NCBI GenBank assembly: GCA_028873125.1
Contig: JAGWMQ010000004.1
Coordinates: 1 to 63,023 of the forward strand
DNA length: 63,023 nucleotides
Reading direction: 5' to 3'
From: Verrucomicrobiota bacterium
GTDB taxonomy: Bacteria; Verrucomicrobiota; Verrucomicrobiia; Limisphaerales; UBA11358
The notes under the pieces are model-generated. The model made no database searches. It was not told the DNA's origin and saw only the letters and a list, made by a program, of their open reading frames with translations. The translations under genes and the position numbers were made by a program. The stretch's first letter is position 1. Each line of letters begins with the position of its first letter. Below, piece after piece: positions 52,754 to 59,677 of the stretch.

Positions 52754-53241
52754 TTTGACCAACGGATTTGTATGAACATTGGCATGATTCAAACGCAGGG
52801 GGGAAAGCCCGGGGAGCCGCACCACCCCCGGCCGGGGCGCGGTGGAATGCGGATCGGGCTGAGAGTGAAGCCGGCATATGCGCGATGGTGGCAATTCCCA
52901 CGCACGTGTCAAATCGAATTCCGAAAGTGCGAAACTGCGCGGCTTGAGGACGCGGCACCTCCGCCGAGACACGCGGCCACGGGCAATCCGGTCCAGGCCA
53001 ACTTCATTCCGCATGCCGGCCGGCCAGCCGGCCCGCCTCCCGTCGGCAAGAAGCGCAGAAAGCGCAAAATTCCTGGCAGTTTTCTGATTATAGTTTTGTG
53101 TTCCGGGTTTTAAGCTGGGGCCTGTGCCAAACCGTTTGCCGGAATCCATTCCGCCCGCGCTCGAAAAGCCGGCCGCATTTTGTCCCGGTCCGACGCACAC
53201 AGGCGGGGTGGGTGCGCGGTCAAAATGATCTTCTTCAACGT

Positions 53242-54323
53242 ATGAAAAAACTCGGGTTGGGCGTGCTGGGTCTTGGCGAGGGGCGCAGCATCATTTCCGC
53301 GGCCTTGAACAGCCGGCTTTGGAAGGTGGCGCAAATCTGCGATCTGGATCAGGAACTGGGCCGGGCGCGCTGCCGCGAATTCAATCTGGACAACTTCACC
53401 GCATCGTTTGACGAACTGCTGGCGAACAAGGAGGTGGACGTGGTGGGCATCTACACACCGGACCCTTTGCACGCCGGGCACGTCCTCCAGGCGTTGCGCG
53501 CCTCCAAACACGTCATCTGCACCAAGCCGTTCCTCAACGATCTGTCCCGCGCCAGGGAGGTGATCGAGGAGCAGCGGCGCAGCGGCAAGGTGGTCCTGGT
53601 TGGACAGAGCACGAGATTTTTCGCCCCCTTCATGCGGCAGCGGCGGCACTTCGAATCCGGCGCGTTCGGTGAAATTGCCACCGTGGAGGCCTGCTACAAC
53701 GCCGATCACCGCTGGTTTCTTAAAAAGGGCTGGGCGAAGACCGAGGCCTTCAAATGGCTTTACGGGGGCCTGAGCCATCCCGTGGACCTGGTGCGCTGGT
53801 ATCTGCCGCACATCGTCGAGGTCATGGGCTATTCGTCGTTGAGCAAAAACGGGCGCGAACTGGGCCTGGCGCACCCCGACACCTTCCAGTTTGTTTCAGG
53901 TCCGGGACCGGAATTCCGGCGCGCGTCAGCGGCACGTACAACAGCCCGGTGATCCCGCTCGAACGCGGCAGCCACATGAGCTGCATTCTGCGCTGCGCCA
54001 GCGGCGCCAGCCAGGCCGACTACTTCGATTTGCGGTACGCGTGGAGAATTGGCGACCAATCCGTCATCGAAACATTTGAGGACCAGGACGATTATTATTT
54101 CCGTTTCGGCGGCCACTCGCACCACGCCGGCGAATATCAGAATTACATCGAGTACTTCGCGCGCTGCCTCGAATCGGGCGAAACACCCAGGCCCGATGCG
54201 GCGGAGGGCGTCGTCACCGTGGCGCTGATGCAGGCCATGGAAGAATCCGCGCAGACGGGCCTGCCGGTAAGATTGGGGACCGTTCTGGCGCGCCATGGGC
54301 TGACGGGGGTGCAGCCGGCATGA
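53242..54323 (+). pseudogene. Gfo/Idh/MocA-family oxidoreductase interrupted by a 1-nt frameshift
   Basis: The Rossmann N-terminus (LGLGVLGLGEGRS) in track ORF 53098..53952 continues in ORF 53754..54323. The junction reads ...HPDTFQFV|FRSGTGIPARVSG... and needs one extra T in TTTGTTTC (53890-53897). Confidence 0.8.
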
Positions 54324-55723
54324 CTGCGAACACCGCCACGACCTCCTACACCAAGCGCTTCAGCTACGCCGCCAGCGACACGGCCGGACAGCTTGTTTTC
54401 TGCGTCATCTCGTTTTATCTCCTGAAGTTTTACACGGACGTTTACGGCCTGTCCGCGGCCGCAGCGGGGACGATCCTGCTGGTGGCCCGCTGCGTTGACG
54501 CCGCGGACGCGCCGGTATGGGGCGTCATTTTCGACAAGACCCACAGTCGCTGGGGCAAAAGCCGTCCCTGGTTTCTGTGGCTGAGCGCGCCGTTCGCCAC
54601 CTTCGGCGTGCTGACGTTTGTGGCTCCCAACCTGGGTTACACCGGCAAGGTGATTTACGCCGCAACGACGTACATCGCGTGCAGCGTCCTTTACACCGGC
54701 ATCAACACGCCGGTGACCTCCATCCTGTCGGCGCTGACCGGCGACCCGCGCGAACGCGTGACGCTGACGTGTTTCCGGATGTTCGGCTCGAAGCTCGGCG
54801 TGCTGCTGGTCAACCTCACGGCGCTGAAACTGGTCGCCGTCCTCGGCCATGGCGACGACCGGAGAGGATTCATGCTCGTCCTGCCGATTTATGCGACGGG
54901 GACCCTGATGTTGTATTTGACGGCCTTCTGGAACCTGGTCGAGACGGTCAAAGAGGAGAAGAAATCCCTGCCCATCCGGGACTCGCTGCGCGCGATGCGG
55001 GGCAATTGGCCGTGGATGATCGTTTTTGCGAGCAGCCTTTGTTTCTGGATCGCCTTCATCGCGCGGATTTCCACGGCGCCTTATTTCTTTGAATACGTGC
55101 TGCAACGCCCGGACCTCATCGGACTGGCGAACGGCCTCGATTTCATCTCGCTGGCCACGGTTTTTTTTCTGCCGTTCCTGTGCCGGTGGACCTCCAAGCG
55201 GAACGTGTGGATGTCCGGGCTGCTCGGCATGGTCGTTGGACAGATCATCGTCTATTTCGGTGTGCGCCAGAAAATGTCCCTCGGCATCATCCTGGGGGGC
55301 TGGGCGTTCGGATTTCTGGCCAGCGGCGCGGCCATGGCGATGCTTTTTTCGCTGATCTCCGATTGTGTGGATTATGGCGAATGGAAGACCGGCATCCGCG
55401 CCGCGGGTTTCTTGACCGCCATCGGCGCGGCGTTTTGCCTGAAAGCCGGCAGCGGGATCGGCGGCGCCCTGCCGGCGTGGATCCTGGCCGCCGGCGGCTA
55501 CGTGCCAAACGTGACCCAGACGGCCGCCTCGTTGAACAGCATCGAAATCAGCTTCATCTGGCTGCCGGCCGCGTTCTTCGCCGTCAGCATCCTGCCCGTG
55601 CTGTTTTACAAGGGCTTTGAAAAGCTCGAGCCTCAAATTCACAGCGACCTGCAAAACCGCCGGAAACGGGCAAGGATTGTTGATGGGCACGATGGGCGAC
55701 GGCAATGTTCATCGGCGGGTTGA
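54320..55723 (+). CDS. Glycoside-pentoside-hexuronide (GPH):cation symporter family transporter
   Basis: SYAASDTAGQLVF...LKFYTDVYGLSAAAAGTILLVARCVDAADAPVWGVIFDKT.SRWGKSRPW. 12 TM segments. The ATG overlaps the upstream stop. Confidence 0.9.
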   Translation: MTANTATTSYTKRFSYAASDTAGQLVFCVISFYLLKFYTDVYGLSAAAAGTILLVARCVDAADAPVWGVIFDKTHSRWGKSRPWFLWLSAPFATFGVLTFVAPNLGYTGKVIYAATTYIACSVLYTGINTPVTSILSALTGDPRERVTLTCFRMFGSKLGVLLVNLTALKLVAVLGHGDDRRGFMLVLPIYATGTLMLYLTAFWNLVETVKEEKKSLPIRDSLRAMRGNWPWMIVFASSLCFWIAFIARISTAPYFFEYVLQRPDLIGLANGLDFISLATVFFLPFLCRWTSKRNVWMSGLLGMVVGQIIVYFGVRQKMSLGIILGGWAFGFLASGAAMAMLFSLISDCVDYGEWKTGIRAAGFLTAIGAAFCLKAGSGIGGALPAWILAAGGYVPNVTQTAASLNSIEISFIWLPAAFFAVSILPVLFYKGFEKLEPQIHSDLQNRRKRARIVDGHDGRRQCSSAG

Positions 55724-55818: not shown

Positions 55819-57465
55819 TCAGCGCGCCGGCGGCCCGGCTATTAATTCCCGCGAACGCGGGAAACAGACTCGTTGAAGGGCGTTGGCCACGGAAACGACC
55901 TTTTCCCGCGGGCATTCGCCCATGAGACAGATCTGAATCCAGTTTCGACGCCGCAGATAATCGCTGTTGTAGCTCAAGAGGTAGCCGGCGTCCTGCATCG
56001 CCTGGCCGATTTTCACCGAGTTCAGTTCCGGCGGCAGGCCGATGGTGACCACGGCGGGCGAGACCGGCGCGCCATTGCCGACCAAAGGGAACCCGGCCGC
56101 ATCCAGACGCGCGCGCAACCACGCGGAAAGTTCCGTCAGTTCGGCAAACCGCTTTTCCCAATTCACCCGCCGCACCGCCGCGTGCAGGGCGTGAAACAGA
56201 TTGGAGGAGAAGGTGAAGGGAATGCCTTCGTGCGCCGCGCCATGGCCCAGATCCAAATATCGCGGCAACCGGTCGGGCGCGGGCGCCACGGCATGATGGT
56301 GGAAAACCATCGAAAGTCCCGGATACGAACGCAGCCCTTTCCCGCTGGCGGAGGACGCGAGATAGACGCCGCTCAAATCCACCGGCAGGGTGCCGATGCT
56401 GCTGATGCAGTCCAGGCATAACCGGGTTCCGGCCCGCGCGCACAACTCTTTGAGCGCGGCCAGGTCTGTCAGGATTCCGGTCGAGGTTTCGCATTGCACG
56501 CACCAGAGCCAGGCCGGTGGCGCGGCCAATCTCTTCGCGACTGCAGCCAGGTCAATCGGCTCGCCCCAGTCGAATTCCAGCGCGTCGAATTTCAATTGGA
56601 AGCGCCGGACATGGTCGAGCAGCCGTTCGCCGAACTCGCCGTTGCTCAGGACCAGGCCGCGCCCGCCCAGCAACGAAAGCTGGCCCGCCACCGCGTCGTT
56701 GGCCAAGGTGCCGGAGCCGAGGAGCAGCTCGACGTTTCGGGCGTTGGCCAGTTCGCACAGGATCTGCCGGGCGGCCTGGAAATCCTTTTTGAAACCTTCG
56801 CCGCGGTGCGACTCGGGCGCCTGCTCGAAGGCGCGACGAACCTCGCGCCGGACGGTGACGGGGCCGGGCAGGAAATTCACGGCGCTGGGATGAAAGGAGC
56901 GGGCAGGGGAGGAGCGCAAAAATTCCCGCGCGGTCACTTCAAACGTTTCCAACGTGACGTACATCGGCTGAAACTGCGCCTCGCCGGCGCCCACGAGCGG
57001 GCCGAAGGGCACAAAGCCGAGGTGCTGATACAATTTCTGCTGGCGCGCGGTGCCGGAAATGATCGCCAGGTCATAGCCCTTTTCGACACCGTGCTGCCAG
57101 AGCAGGGCGAGGATGCCCTGGAGCACCTGGCCGCCGCGCGCGCCCCGGTATTTTTTGTCAATGGCCAGCAGCCGGATTTCGCAAATGGTCCGGCCGCGCG
57201 GCAGATGCGAGTCCAGGTCGGGCAGTTTTTGGTCGAGCGAAAAGGGCCGGTCGCCGCGCACGGCCAGCATCCCGACCAGCCTCCGGTTGTGCAGGCAGAT
57301 CAGGTAGGTGTTCTCGGCGTGGAATTTGTCCACGAGCCGCTGGGCGGCCGACGGCTGGTGCTGCGGGATTTCCTCGACGAAGGTCTTGTAGTTGAGCCGG
57401 TGAACCTGCTCGAATTCCCAGTCTTCGGTCGCAAATTTGAAAATGAGCGGTTCGTGCGTGTTCAT
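55819..57465 (-). CDS. Fusion protein: N-terminal GNAT-fold N-acyltransferase plus C-terminal class V aminotransferase
   Basis: aa 1-190: VDKFHAENTYLICLHNRRLVGMLAVR and LLAIDKKYRGARGGQVL. aa ~200-548: FLPGPVTV..., GSGTLANDA, SSASGKGL (PLP Lys), AGXT/PhnW-like. Confidence 0.85.
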   Translation of the reverse strand: MNTHEPLIFKFATEDWEFEQVHRLNYKTFVEEIPQHQPSAAQRLVDKFHAENTYLICLHNRRLVGMLAVRGDRPFSLDQKLPDLDSHLPRGRTICEIRLLAIDKKYRGARGGQVLQGILALLWQHGVEKGYDLAIISGTARQQKLYQHLGFVPFGPLVGAGEAQFQPMYVTLETFEVTAREFLRSSPARSFHPSAVNFLPGPVTVRREVRRAFEQAPESHRGEGFKKDFQAARQILCELANARNVELLLGSGTLANDAVAGQLSLLGGRGLVLSNGEFGERLLDHVRRFQLKFDALEFDWGEPIDLAAVAKRLAAPPAWLWCVQCETSTGILTDLAALKELCARAGTRLCLDCISSIGTLPVDLSGVYLASSASGKGLRSYPGLSMVFHHHAVAPAPDRLPRYLDLGHGAAHEGIPFTFSSNLFHALHAAVRRVNWEKRFAELTELSAWLRARLDAAGFPLVGNGAPVSPAVVTIGLPPELNSVKIGQAMQDAGYLLSYNSDYLRRRNWIQICLMGECPREKVVSVANALQRVCFPRSRELIAGPPAR

Positions 57466-58112
57466 AATTTCGGTTCGCCGGGTTTGGGCGCGACCTCATG
57501 CCGCGCCACCGCTGCCGCCATTTCATCCGCAAAATTCCTGCGGTGCGCAAACAAAATCATCACCGCCAGAACAATCAGCAGCGTCGCCGCCAGCCCGCCG
57601 CCTTCGAACCACCAGCCGGCCACGGGCAGTCCGGCGAAGGCGAACATGGCCGGCAGAAAGGTTTTTCTCGAAGCGGCGAATCCGGCCAGAAACAGGACGG
57701 CAAACGTCAGGGCCAGCCGGTAATCGAGCAGCAACAGCGCGCCCAGCGCGGTGGCGACGCCCTTGCCCCCGCGGAAATGCAGCGGGGCGGGCCAGATGTG
57801 GCCGGCGACCGCGGCCAGCAACGCCAGCAGCGCGGGCAGGGGGGCGTCGCCGTTGAACTCGAAAGCCAGCCACACGGCCAGCGCGCCCTTGCTGAAATCG
57901 CCCAGCAAGGTGAAGAGAAAGCCGGACCGTCCCAGAACGCGGCCCACGTTGCGTGCGCCGGTGACGCCGCTGCCCAGTTCGCGGACGTCCCCGCCGGCGC
58001 GGAGGCGGACCAGCCAGTAGCCGGTCGAGAAGCAGCCCAGCAAATAGCCCGCCGCGGCGCATCCGGCCGCCCGGCTCCAGTTCACGGACTGCAAATGTTC
58101 GATCCAGACCAC
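57462..58112 (-). CDS. plsY: Glycerol-3-phosphate acyltransferase PlsY
   Basis: GSGVTGARNVGRVLG and FRGGKGVATALG motifs with 5-6 TM segments. Its stop overlaps the downstream start (ATGA). Confidence 0.9.
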   Translation of the reverse strand: MVWIEHLQSVNWSRAAGCAAAGYLLGCFSTGYWLVRLRAGGDVRELGSGVTGARNVGRVLGRSGFLFTLLGDFSKGALAVWLAFEFNGDAPLPALLALLAAVAGHIWPAPLHFRGGKGVATALGALLLLDYRLALTFAVLFLAGFAASRKTFLPAMFAFAGLPVAGWWFEGGGLAATLLIVLAVMILFAHRRNFADEMAAAVARHEVAPKPGEPKL

Positions 58113-58205
58113 GGGGCAATCGCGTTCCGATGAATTGAGGCAATCTTAACATAAGACGGACCTGCTGTGAATCAAAAATTTCGAGCCGCAAAATGCCGGG
58201 GGAGG

Positions 58206-58377
58206 CTCGACGATTTTGAAATCGCGCATCGGGACCATGAACTCCGCGTCGTCCGTAGCGCGGGCGTCCTCGCCGGTGGGTTCACCCGGCGTCTCGCGGG
58301 GTGTTGAGGCTGCTGGCGGCGAGACGCCGCCGCCACCCGCCGTCGGGACGACTGCGCTACGATTCATGGAAAGGCGG
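58206..58377 (+). repeat. About 170-bp structured dispersed repeat, copy B
   Basis: Counterpart of 49187-49359. Stem CGGCGTCTCGC (58287-58297) with GCGAGACGCCG (58319-58329). Accounts for track ORFs 58146..58391(-) and 58216..58536(+). Confidence 0.88.
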
Positions 58378-58411
58378 AGTGTTCTTGACAAACTCCTGCG
58401 CCGGATTAGGA

Positions 58412-59677
58412 ATGGAGGCGCAACCTGTCAAACTCGAGGCCATGCGCCGGCTGATTGTCAATCCCGGAACAGCAAGCGCCTGGGAAATTCCGCTCGCGCC
58501 GGGCGTGATCTCCCTGGGACGCAACGCGGAAAATAATTTTCCCATCGAACATGACTCCGTCTCGGGCGCGCATTGCCTGCTCACCGTGACTGACTCGGGC
58601 GTGCTCATCAAGGACATGGGTTCGACCAACGGAACTTTTGTCAACGACGCCCCGGCGGACGAAGCGGTCTTGTTGCCCGGCCAAACCCTCCGGCTGGGCG
58701 ACGTGCTGCTGCGGCTGGAGTCGGACGCCGAACCGACGGCGGCAATTCCATTGCCGGCCGGCGCCAAGGCGGACGCGCCCGCCGCGGCGTTTTGCAAGAT
58801 CCACCCCCGGGCGTTGGCGCGGTTGCATTGTCCGCGATGCCAGCGGAATTTCTGCGACGCCTGCGTGAGCATGAGGCAGGGCCGCACCTTCTGCCGCGCC
58901 TGCGGCGTGGAGTGCCAGCCGCTGGAAACGGCGCCGGCGTCTGCCGGACCCGAACCGTCGTTTTTCAGCATGGCGCGAGGCGCGTTTGCCTATCCACTCC
59001 AGGGCGACGGCGTGATTCTGCTGGTGGGCGGGACGATTTTTCTGCTGGTGATTGACGGGGCGAAGTATGTGCTGAGGTTCGTCCCTGGTTACGGATGGGT
59101 GCTTCTTCTTCTGCTGACGGTTTTTGGGACCGGTTATCTGGCGGCCTATCTGCGGCGGATTTTGACGGACACGGCCGCGGGCGAAAAAGCCATGCCCGAC
59201 TGGCCGGAATTCACGGATTTTAGTAGCATCACCTCGCCGTTTTTTCAACTGGTCGGCACGGTCGTCTTCAGTTTTGCCCCGGCGATTGCGCTGACAATTT
59301 ATGCGATGACGGCCAAGGAAGGCGGGGCGTGGCTGGGGTGGGCGACAACGGCGTGCATCCTTTTTGGATGCGCTTATTTTCCGATGGCCTTCACGGCAGT
59401 GGCGATGTTCGACTCGATCGGCGCAGTCAATCCGTTGTTGATCGTCCCGTCCATTTTGAGAATTCCGCTGGAGTATTTGTTCACGGTGGCGTTGTTCGCC
59501 GTCATTCTGCTCGTGCGCTGGTTGGGCCGGACTTTTTTGCCGGACATTTTGCCGGTGCCGGTGTTGCCCGCGGTTCTGTCTGGTCTGCTCGGATTGTATT
59601 TGCTGGCGGTCGAGGTGCGCGTCCTCGGCCAGTTGTACTGGGCGAAAAAGGGCGAATTAGGCTGGTTCAGGCGGTGA
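58412..59677 (+). CDS. FHA domain / B-box-like zinc ribbon / polytopic membrane protein
   Basis: FHA (ISLGRNAENNFPIEHDSVSGAHCLL...GSTNGTFVN). Cys/His cluster FCKIHP...HCPRCQRNFCDACVSMRQGRTFCRACG. About 6 TM helices with a DUF4013-like PDWPEF loop. Start at ATG 58412 or 58442. Confidence 0.85.
   Translation: MEAQPVKLEAMRRLIVNPGTASAWEIPLAPGVISLGRNAENNFPIEHDSVSGAHCLLTVTDSGVLIKDMGSTNGTFVNDAPADEAVLLPGQTLRLGDVLLRLESDAEPTAAIPLPAGAKADAPAAAFCKIHPRALARLHCPRCQRNFCDACVSMRQGRTFCRACGVECQPLETAPASAGPEPSFFSMARGAFAYPLQGDGVILLVGGTIFLLVIDGAKYVLRFVPGYGWVLLLLLTVFGTGYLAAYLRRILTDTAAGEKAMPDWPEFTDFSSITSPFFQLVGTVVFSFAPAIALTIYAMTAKEGGAWLGWATTACILFGCAYFPMAFTAVAMFDSIGAVNPLLIVPSILRIPLEYLFTVALFAVILLVRWLGRTFLPDILPVPVLPAVLSGLLGLYLLAVEVRVLGQLYWAKKGELGWFRR

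Follow-up and report, generated by a model that had tools for sequence, protein, structure and literature searches.

The window analysed here, 63,023 nucleotides of contig JAGWMQ010000004.1 from the assembly GCA_028873125.1 of a soil Verrucomicrobium (order Limisphaerales; genome of 3.74 Mb, 94% complete), carries on its minus strand two overlapping genes. One encodes a diverged paralogue of the acyl-phosphate acyltransferase PlsY, which we call PlsY2, and the other a protein joining a FeeM-type N-acyl synthase to a class V pyridoxal phosphate (PLP) aminotransferase. We think it reasonably probable that these two genes constitute a self-contained module building the backbone of a serinol phospholipid. 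In the proposed pathway, transamination of dihydroxyacetone phosphate by the C-terminal PLP domain of the fusion would give serinol phosphate, in which an amino group at C2 replaces the hydroxyl of glycerol 3-phosphate. The FeeM-type domain would then transfer an acyl chain from a carrier to this 2-amino group, thereby taking the role of PlsC, and PlsY2 would acylate the free primary hydroxyl with acyl-phosphate coming from the single PlsX, which is present in the genome. Either acylation could come first. This would yield N,O-diacylserinol phosphate, the amide-linked counterpart of phosphatidic acid, which could be passed on to the usual head-group enzymes. By analogy, the three parts of the module (the amine-forming PLP domain, the N-acyl synthase and the acyl-phosphate O-acyltransferase) would parallel GpsA, PlsC and PlsY.

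Some of these steps are known from other systems. RtxA (PMC3222319) and Cj1437 (PMC12096443) are established to form serinol phosphate by transamination of dihydroxyacetone phosphate, and E. coli given a single nas gene from Gemella makes N-acyl serinol (bioRxiv 10.1101/2025.04.11.648385). The first-pass annotation of this DNA had reasoned that a polypeptide able both to make an amine and to N-acylate it suggests an uncharacterised aminolipid, N-acyl amino acid or head-group pathway. Its domain logic holds and its choice of product probably does not: a replaced lipid backbone, with glycerol phosphate giving way to serinol phosphate, is more likely than an N-acyl amino acid or a head-group pathway.

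The PlsY2 paralogue and the fusion protein

The product of plsY2 matches the Pfam family G3P_acyltransf (PF02660) at 1.7e-39, with 136 bits against a cut-off of 24.1. The family given in the first-pass annotation is therefore right, and what that annotation missed is the status of the gene as a paralogue. The protein falls below the cut-offs of the PlsY equivalogs (119 against 137.2 bits for TIGR00023 and 98.5 against 199 for NF001254), and a better-scoring PlsY is encoded on another contig (C160:6770-7318; 180 bits, against 136 for the plsY2 product). The latter is the housekeeping copy and the copy in the window is a second, diverged paralogue. The same picture was obtained across 151 genomes of the order, in which the PF02660 scores fall into two groups, 170-197 for housekeeping copies and about 136-149 for those adjoining the fusion. 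At least two PlsY are present in 41 of the 44 genomes of this sample having a full-length fusion, versus 4 of the 97 without a fusion match. In a maximum-likelihood tree, a single branch with a support of 100/99 parts 28 paralogues from 16 housekeeping PlsY; for two Pseudalkalibacillus species (Bacillota), the paralogues nest among those of the Verrucomicrobiota and the housekeeping copies fall with the housekeeping set. PlsY2 is a separate paralogue clade spanning phyla.

The residues of the active site were counted over 28 paralogues and 16 housekeeping PlsY and numbered by the Aquifex enzyme, aaPlsY. Their roles are those derived from the Aquifex PlsY structures (5xj5 and others) in PMC5700162: Ser142 and His177 are the ligands of the glycerol 3-phosphate 2-OH, Thr41 binds the carbonyl of the acyl-phosphate, Ser35, Arg45, Lys104 and Asn180 form the clamp of the glycerol 3-phosphate phosphate, and His92 together with the GGKG loop makes up the "phosphate hole" of the acyl-phosphate. 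Ser35, Gly39, Ala40, Asn42, His92, the GG(K/R)G loop and His177 are retained in 27-28 of the 28 paralogues, with His92, the loop and His177 in all of them. The position of Ser142, which is serine in 16/16 housekeeping enzymes, is occupied by glycine in 22 of the 28 paralogues and by Ala155 in the window PlsY2. At the position of Thr41, threonine is found in 15 of the 16 housekeeping enzymes and arginine in 23 of the 28 paralogues, including that of the window (R54), while Asn37 (the GSGN position of motif 1) is invariant in the 16 housekeeping enzymes and becomes Ser, Gly or Val in the paralogues. As for the clamp, the paralogues keep Ser35 in 27 cases, Lys104 (as Lys or Arg) in 28, Arg45 in 22 and Asn180 in 17, the last two being present in all 16 housekeeping enzymes; the window PlsY2 has all four residues (S48, R58, K117 and N193). 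This pattern fits an enzyme predicted to use an acyl-phosphate donor and a small phosphorylated acceptor which is unlike glycerol 3-phosphate at C2. The linked plsY had been taken at first for the lysophosphatidate-forming enzyme, an assignment that we replace by this paralogue clade with changed acceptor-site residues. Compared with the PlsX/PlsY/PlsC pathway, PlsY2 likewise has the PlsY fold family, the phosphate hole and most of the phosphate clamp but, where the housekeeping PlsY works with PlsC, PlsY2 is tied by coupling or fusion to an N-acyl synthase/aminotransferase.

The second protein had been described from its sequence as a GNAT-fold domain followed by a complete AGXT/PhnW-like PLP aminotransferase with an SGK lysine, and Pfam matches, folds and an invariant lysine all bear this out. 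Its full-length AlphaFold model has a mean predicted local distance difference test (pLDDT) of 87.5 and contains two well-folded domains. The best Pfam match of the N-terminal domain is FeeM (PF21926; residues 20-156, 1.1e-10, 42 bits with the cut-off at 27), followed by Acetyltransf_5 (3.6e-8, 34.5 bits) and Acetyltransf_1 (6e-5, 23.7 bits). Modelled alone by AlphaFold2 (AF2), the domain reaches a pLDDT of 90 and is matched over its whole length by acyl-homoserine-lactone synthases, with template-modelling scores on the query (TMq) of 0.77 for BjaI (5w8e), 0.72 for LasI and 0.71 for TofI; FeeM itself (2g0b) gives 0.65-0.67, and small acetyltransferases cover less of the domain, with a TMq of 0.57-0.63. 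These profiles and folds identify the domain as a FeeM-type N-acyl synthase, predicted to take a long-chain acyl group and an amine. The suggestion of the first-pass annotation that it is nearer to N-acyl synthases or OlsB-type enzymes than to acetyltransferases was thus well founded, and the domain-level profile searches that it recommended returned FeeM and Acetyltransf_5 above Acetyltransf_1, with Aminotran_5 matched in the other half of the protein.

The C-terminal domain matches Aminotran_5 with 26.1 bits (Pfam cut-off 21.5), and its best NCBIfam match is the PhnW-AepZ family TIGR03301, with 132.7 bits against a cut-off of 360.8. PhnW/AepZ enzymes are also its best sequence matches in the PDB, and Foldseek aligned it with 1iug, 2dr1 and 7e7g at E ~1e-26 and template-modelling scores on the target (TMt) of 0.85-0.88. 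Two PLP residues are invariant in 38 verrucomicrobial homologues: Lys376, the predicted Schiff-base lysine, whose counterpart in solved relatives is the lysine of an SGK, SQK or ANK motif, and Asp352, which we take from the fold to be the aspartate facing the pyridine nitrogen. His220-Arg221 is invariant too. The motif fRiGxmG of the relatives reads WIQICLMG in this protein (alignments to 1iug, 1vjo, 1m32, 2dr1 and 2yri), which puts Gln511 at the position of the C-terminal arginine (Arg340 of PhnW, Arg360 of AGT) that anchors the carboxylate or phosphonate of the substrate. This glutamine is invariant in the 38 verrucomicrobial and in 10 Bacillota homologues and, since it replaces the anchoring arginine, substrate binding must differ from that of the characterised relatives.

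One PDB entry, 9os7, with a chain of 555 amino acids, was considered as a solved homologue of the fusion and rejected, being the Met-tRNA synthetase of Mycoplasma penetrans with ancillary domains. In the N-terminal ancillary region of its chain A, a class V aminotransferase-like domain begins at residue 198, which matches the domain boundary of the fusion.

Linkage and distribution of the pair

Two pattern scans provided 157 named loci, 6 of them with too little upstream DNA, leaving 151 informative ones. In 132 of these (plus one with a partial gene) PlsY2 immediately precedes the fusion, and in 18 it is absent; it is also directly upstream in 11/11 loci of a phylum-wide sample and in 11/11 loci of a sample of the order. 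With 22/22 sampled loci and 132 (plus one partial) of 151 named loci, the linkage of PlsY2 to the fusion is not due to chance, and the conservation of synteny with plsY, which the first-pass annotation had left to be checked, turns out to be strong. Since the N-terminal domain matches the N-acyl synthase profiles better than those of ordinary acetyltransferases and the linkage is conserved, neither of the two outcomes named at that stage as speaking against a lipid-related pathway was found.

In some lineages the link is covalent, and PlsY2, FeeM and aminotransferase form one polypeptide: L010 (739 amino acids; L010:856-3072, plus strand), P0124 (734), P0131 (768) and P0331 (756), the last carrying PF02660 in its precomputed annotation, and P0200 with a partial match to this architecture over 641 amino acids. 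In these single polypeptides, the soluble FeeM and aminotransferase domains stand at the cytoplasmic C-terminus of the PlsY2 membrane enzyme. The pair is also found on plasmids. One copy (L313) is on a conjugative plasmid of Bacillus toyonensis (NZ_CP126528.1, 268768-270905), with overlapping stop and start codons, and another (L312) on a megaplasmid of Cytobacillus spongiae (NZ_CP089998.1, 203023-207073). The corresponding RefSeq names are "glycerol-3-phosphate acyltransferase" and "aminotransferase class V-fold PLP-dependent enzyme". These copies turned up in a search of plasmids for relatives annotated as RtxA-like, of which none was found. The L312 pair is preceded by the gene of a TIGR02206 membrane protein and followed, with overlapping stop and start codons, by a gene of the lipoteichoic acid (LTA) synthase family.

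The fusion family is large: a word-index protein search gave more than 5,700 matches, over 1,100 representatives of protein clusters match at E <1e-30, and by pattern scan at least 580 species-level genomes carry it. Named carriers belong to Verrucomicrobiota (Limisphaerales, Pedosphaera), Planctomycetota, Bacillota, Chloroflexota, Acidobacteriota, Methylomirabilota/NC10, Desulfobacterota, Sumerlaeota, Dadabacteria and Kiritimatiellae, with an identity of about 50% between fusion proteins across phyla. Within the order of the window organism the module occurs unevenly, in about 44 of 151 genomes and, for the same genus, in one of the two other genomes. No functional name for the fusion exists in the databases searched, and no paper naming either gene was found. 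The copy in the window is one ordinary member of a very widespread and functionally unnamed module. Copies of 72-84% identity also occur in metagenome-assembled genomes labelled Bifidobacteriaceae, Bifidobacterium or Chthonomonas (L086, L091, L093, L149, L150 and others), labels which are probably wrong.

The fusion stands without PlsY2 in G341, G416 and G418 and in some Acidobacteriota, NC10, Dadabacteria and Thermodesulfobacteriota, and no replacement acyltransferase was found at the loci lacking PlsY2. Two fusion-bearing genomes, G459 (Dadabacteria, locus L201) and G461 (Thermodesulfobacteriota, locus L221), have no match to PF02660; phospholipid synthesis must therefore start in another way in these organisms, and any O-acylation of an amide product would need a different enzyme.

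Related arrangements were seen as well. At L044 (L044:5708-7778), L045 and L046, separate GNAT and aminotransferase genes of 33-35% identity follow a MarR gene, with no PlsY nearby; this split form may make a different product or may be ancestral. In the ESM Atlas (rows 23-27), proteins of about 570-600 amino acids combine a GNAT/autoinducer-synthase-like domain with a class I/II aminotransferase of the histidinol-phosphate type. The clusters come from Actinomycetota, Bacteroidota and Thermoplasmatota, score only 0.82, and may represent a convergent architecture for making and acylating an amine.

The predicted lipid and its rivals

One cultured carrier of the module is Limisphaera ngatamarikiensis. 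Its fusion protein, WP_165106257.1, is 71% identical to that of the window, and its PlsY2 gene ends 9 nt upstream. The fusion is present in 4/4 Limisphaera genomes, and three Limisphaera and two Pseudalkalibacillus genomes have two PlsY each, the low-scoring copy being the one adjoining the fusion. Vyssotski et al. are said to have reported serinophospholipids in 2025 (J Nat Prod 88:373). PMC13388977 cites this study jointly with the description of L. ngatamarikiensis. The bacterium is apparently the source of these lipids, and their class is thus probably not an uncharacterised one. Serinophospholipids, membrane phospholipids on a diacylated serine- or serinol-derived backbone, are the product class that we predict; their study is one of lipid chemistry. 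A literature search gave no paper assigning genes to them or tying PlsY or any gene to serinol lipids. The module is a strong candidate for the genes of serinophospholipid biosynthesis.

Known enzymes share parts of this scheme. The human-microbiome N-acyl synthase of the N-acyl serinol type (nas of Gemella haemolysans; Cohen et al. 2017, Nature 549:48) is reportedly an N-acyl synthase joined to an aminotransferase and would share the logic of the fusion. With this one gene N-acyl serinol is obtained; the product is a free amide and no PlsY partner has been reported. No Gemella protein was among the matches listed by two word-index searches and two pattern scans, and an N-acyl serinol synthase was not found in the ESM Atlas. 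The RtxA N-terminal domain from Bradyrhizobium elkanii and Cj1437 from Campylobacter jejuni convert dihydroxyacetone phosphate with glutamate or alanine to serinol phosphate, the reaction proposed here. Their products go to rhizobitoxine and capsule amidation, not to lipids. The OlsB/OlsA and GlsB/GlsA systems also pair an Acetyltransf_5/FeeM-like N-acyltransferase with a second, O-acylating enzyme, but they use an amino-acid acceptor and an O-acyltransferase of the PlsC family, in place of the PlsY paralogue and the fused transaminase found in the window.

Several observations count against a serinol phospholipid module. PlsY2 is missing at 18 of the 151 loci and some fusion-bearing genomes have one PlsY or none, while two loci (L039 and L041) have PlsY2 and a stand-alone FeeM domain with no aminotransferase domain. 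Because the window PlsY2 possesses the whole phosphate clamp, it might still accept glycerol 3-phosphate, and because the canonical anchoring arginine is absent, the substrates of the aminotransferase cannot be read from its relatives. Only about 30% of the sampled genomes of the order carry the module, none of them from an organism with known lipids, and L. ngatamarikiensis is linked to serinophospholipids through a title and a co-citation.

Part of this evidence would suit another amide-linked lipid, built on an amino-alcohol or amino-acid scaffold other than serinol, which we regard as unlikely. It could be an N-(3-hydroxyacyl) amine resembling ornithine or glycine lipids, with its hydroxyl esterified by PlsY2 as OlsA and GlsA do, or a backbone made from a different phosphorylated keto compound. 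Amino-acid N-acyl synthases do exist among the FeeM/Acetyltransf_5 relatives, Gln511 hides the substrate of the aminotransferase, some PlsY2 and FeeM pairs have no aminotransferase domain, and some paralogues have lost the clamp residues Arg45 and Asn180. A dedicated transaminase, however, would be needless for common amino acids, and the clamp and His177 kept by most paralogues, including that of the window, point to a small phosphorylated acceptor and not to a lyso-aminolipid; the module is moreover present in L. ngatamarikiensis, the apparent origin of lipids with a serine or serinol backbone. The 18 loci without PlsY2, the fusion-bearing genomes without any PlsY and the intact clamp of the window enzyme would agree instead with a free diffusible N-acyl serinol or other N-acyl amide, acting as a signal or surfactant, PlsY2 being then a co-transcribed isozyme of the glycerol-3-phosphate acyltransferase, and one nas gene does suffice for N-oleoyl serinol in E. 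coli. We hold this for quite improbable, since PlsY2 is covalently joined to the enzyme in several lineages, forms a separate clade in which the 2-OH ligand and Thr41 are systematically replaced, has few counterparts where the fusion is missing (a second PlsY in 4/97 genomes) and travels together with the fusion on plasmids.

The aminotransferase matches raise one more alternative, to which we give hardly any credence, that of a phosphonate-containing lipid obtained by N-acylation of 2-aminoethylphosphonate from the PhnW-like domain. It draws on the NCBIfam and PDB sequence matches of this domain, the best of which are PhnW/AepZ enzymes, but 2-aminoethylphosphonate would offer no hydroxyl to PlsY2, and a search of the 94%-complete genome gave no phosphoenolpyruvate mutase (PF13714). 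With the mutase missing, the TIGR03301 score far under its cut-off (132.7 versus 360.8) and the phosphonate-binding arginine changed to glutamine, this reading was rejected.

In textbooks, the natural phospholipid backbones are glycerol and the sphingoid bases; serinol as a third one was reportedly described by chemistry in 2025, apparently from one thermophilic Verrucomicrobium. That the module is the genetic determinant of this "third type" of phospholipid has, in our judgement, about an even chance. If the two genes do build a serinol phospholipid backbone, amide-linked membranes would be an alternative to glycerophospholipids, widespread and open to horizontal transfer, and not the curiosity of a single thermophile. 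They could be predicted from the genome alone for hundreds of soil, sediment and hot-spring bacteria, and the two-gene pathway could be tested in cultured Limisphaera, Pseudalkalibacillus, Cytobacillus and Oceanobacillus. A function would also be gained for a PlsY subfamily annotated as "glycerol-3-phosphate acyltransferase" and for the class V fusion. Amide-linked backbones withstand hydrolysis, a property of relevance to the stability of membranes, to biomarker geochemistry and to ideas about alternative membrane chemistries.

Gene layout and neighbours

The coordinates of the two genes and of their features are collected in the table. The overlap of the plsY stop with the start of the 548-residue reading frame, noticed in the first reading of the sequence, was confirmed together with both frames: the minus strand reads AAA TTA TGA, with the ATG at 57465-57463 and the TGA at 57464-57462, which makes a true overlap.

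Features of the plsY2/fusion locus, in positions of the window
Feature	Position	Strand	Remarks
Promoter-like site, TTCACA-17-TAAGAT with TG extension	58143..58171	-	~30 nt upstream of plsY2 start
plsY2, diverged PlsY-family acyl-phosphate acyltransferase paralogue	57462..58112	-	216 aa, GTG start
Codon for PlsY2 Arg54 (aaPlsY Thr41)	57951..57953	-	alignment
Codon for PlsY2 Ala155 (aaPlsY Ser142)	57648..57650	-	alignment
plsY2 stop/fusion start overlap, ATGA	57462..57465	-	4 nt, read in sequence
FeeM/aminotransferase fusion gene	55819-57465	-	548 aa, ATG start
FeeM-type long-chain N-acyl synthase domain, residues 1-183	56917..57465	-	Pfam and AF2 fold
Inter-domain linker, residues 184-193	56887..56916	-	pLDDT <50, disordered in model
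Class V (AGXT/PhnW-like) PLP aminotransferase, residues 194-548 and stop	55819..56886	-	Pfam, PDB folds
Codon for Lys376, predicted PLP Schiff-base lysine (SGK motif)	56338..56340	-	alignment
Codon for Gln511, at PhnW/AGT substrate-anchoring Arg position	55933..55935	-	alignments

The promoter-like site is a consensus match, one being found where 0.3 would be expected from shuffled sequences. The pair is flanked by a convergent gene for an MFS_2 transporter (54320-55723) and a divergent gene with an FHA domain (58301-59677). Counterparts of these two genes were found at none of the related loci, and the unit therefore consists of the two genes. Farther out, a GFO/IDH/MocA oxidoreductase (53098-54323, plus strand) is encoded in two overlapping frames, one for the N-terminal Rossmann part (53098-53952) and one for the C-terminal part (53754-54323), which may reflect a frameshift, a pseudogene or an assembly error.

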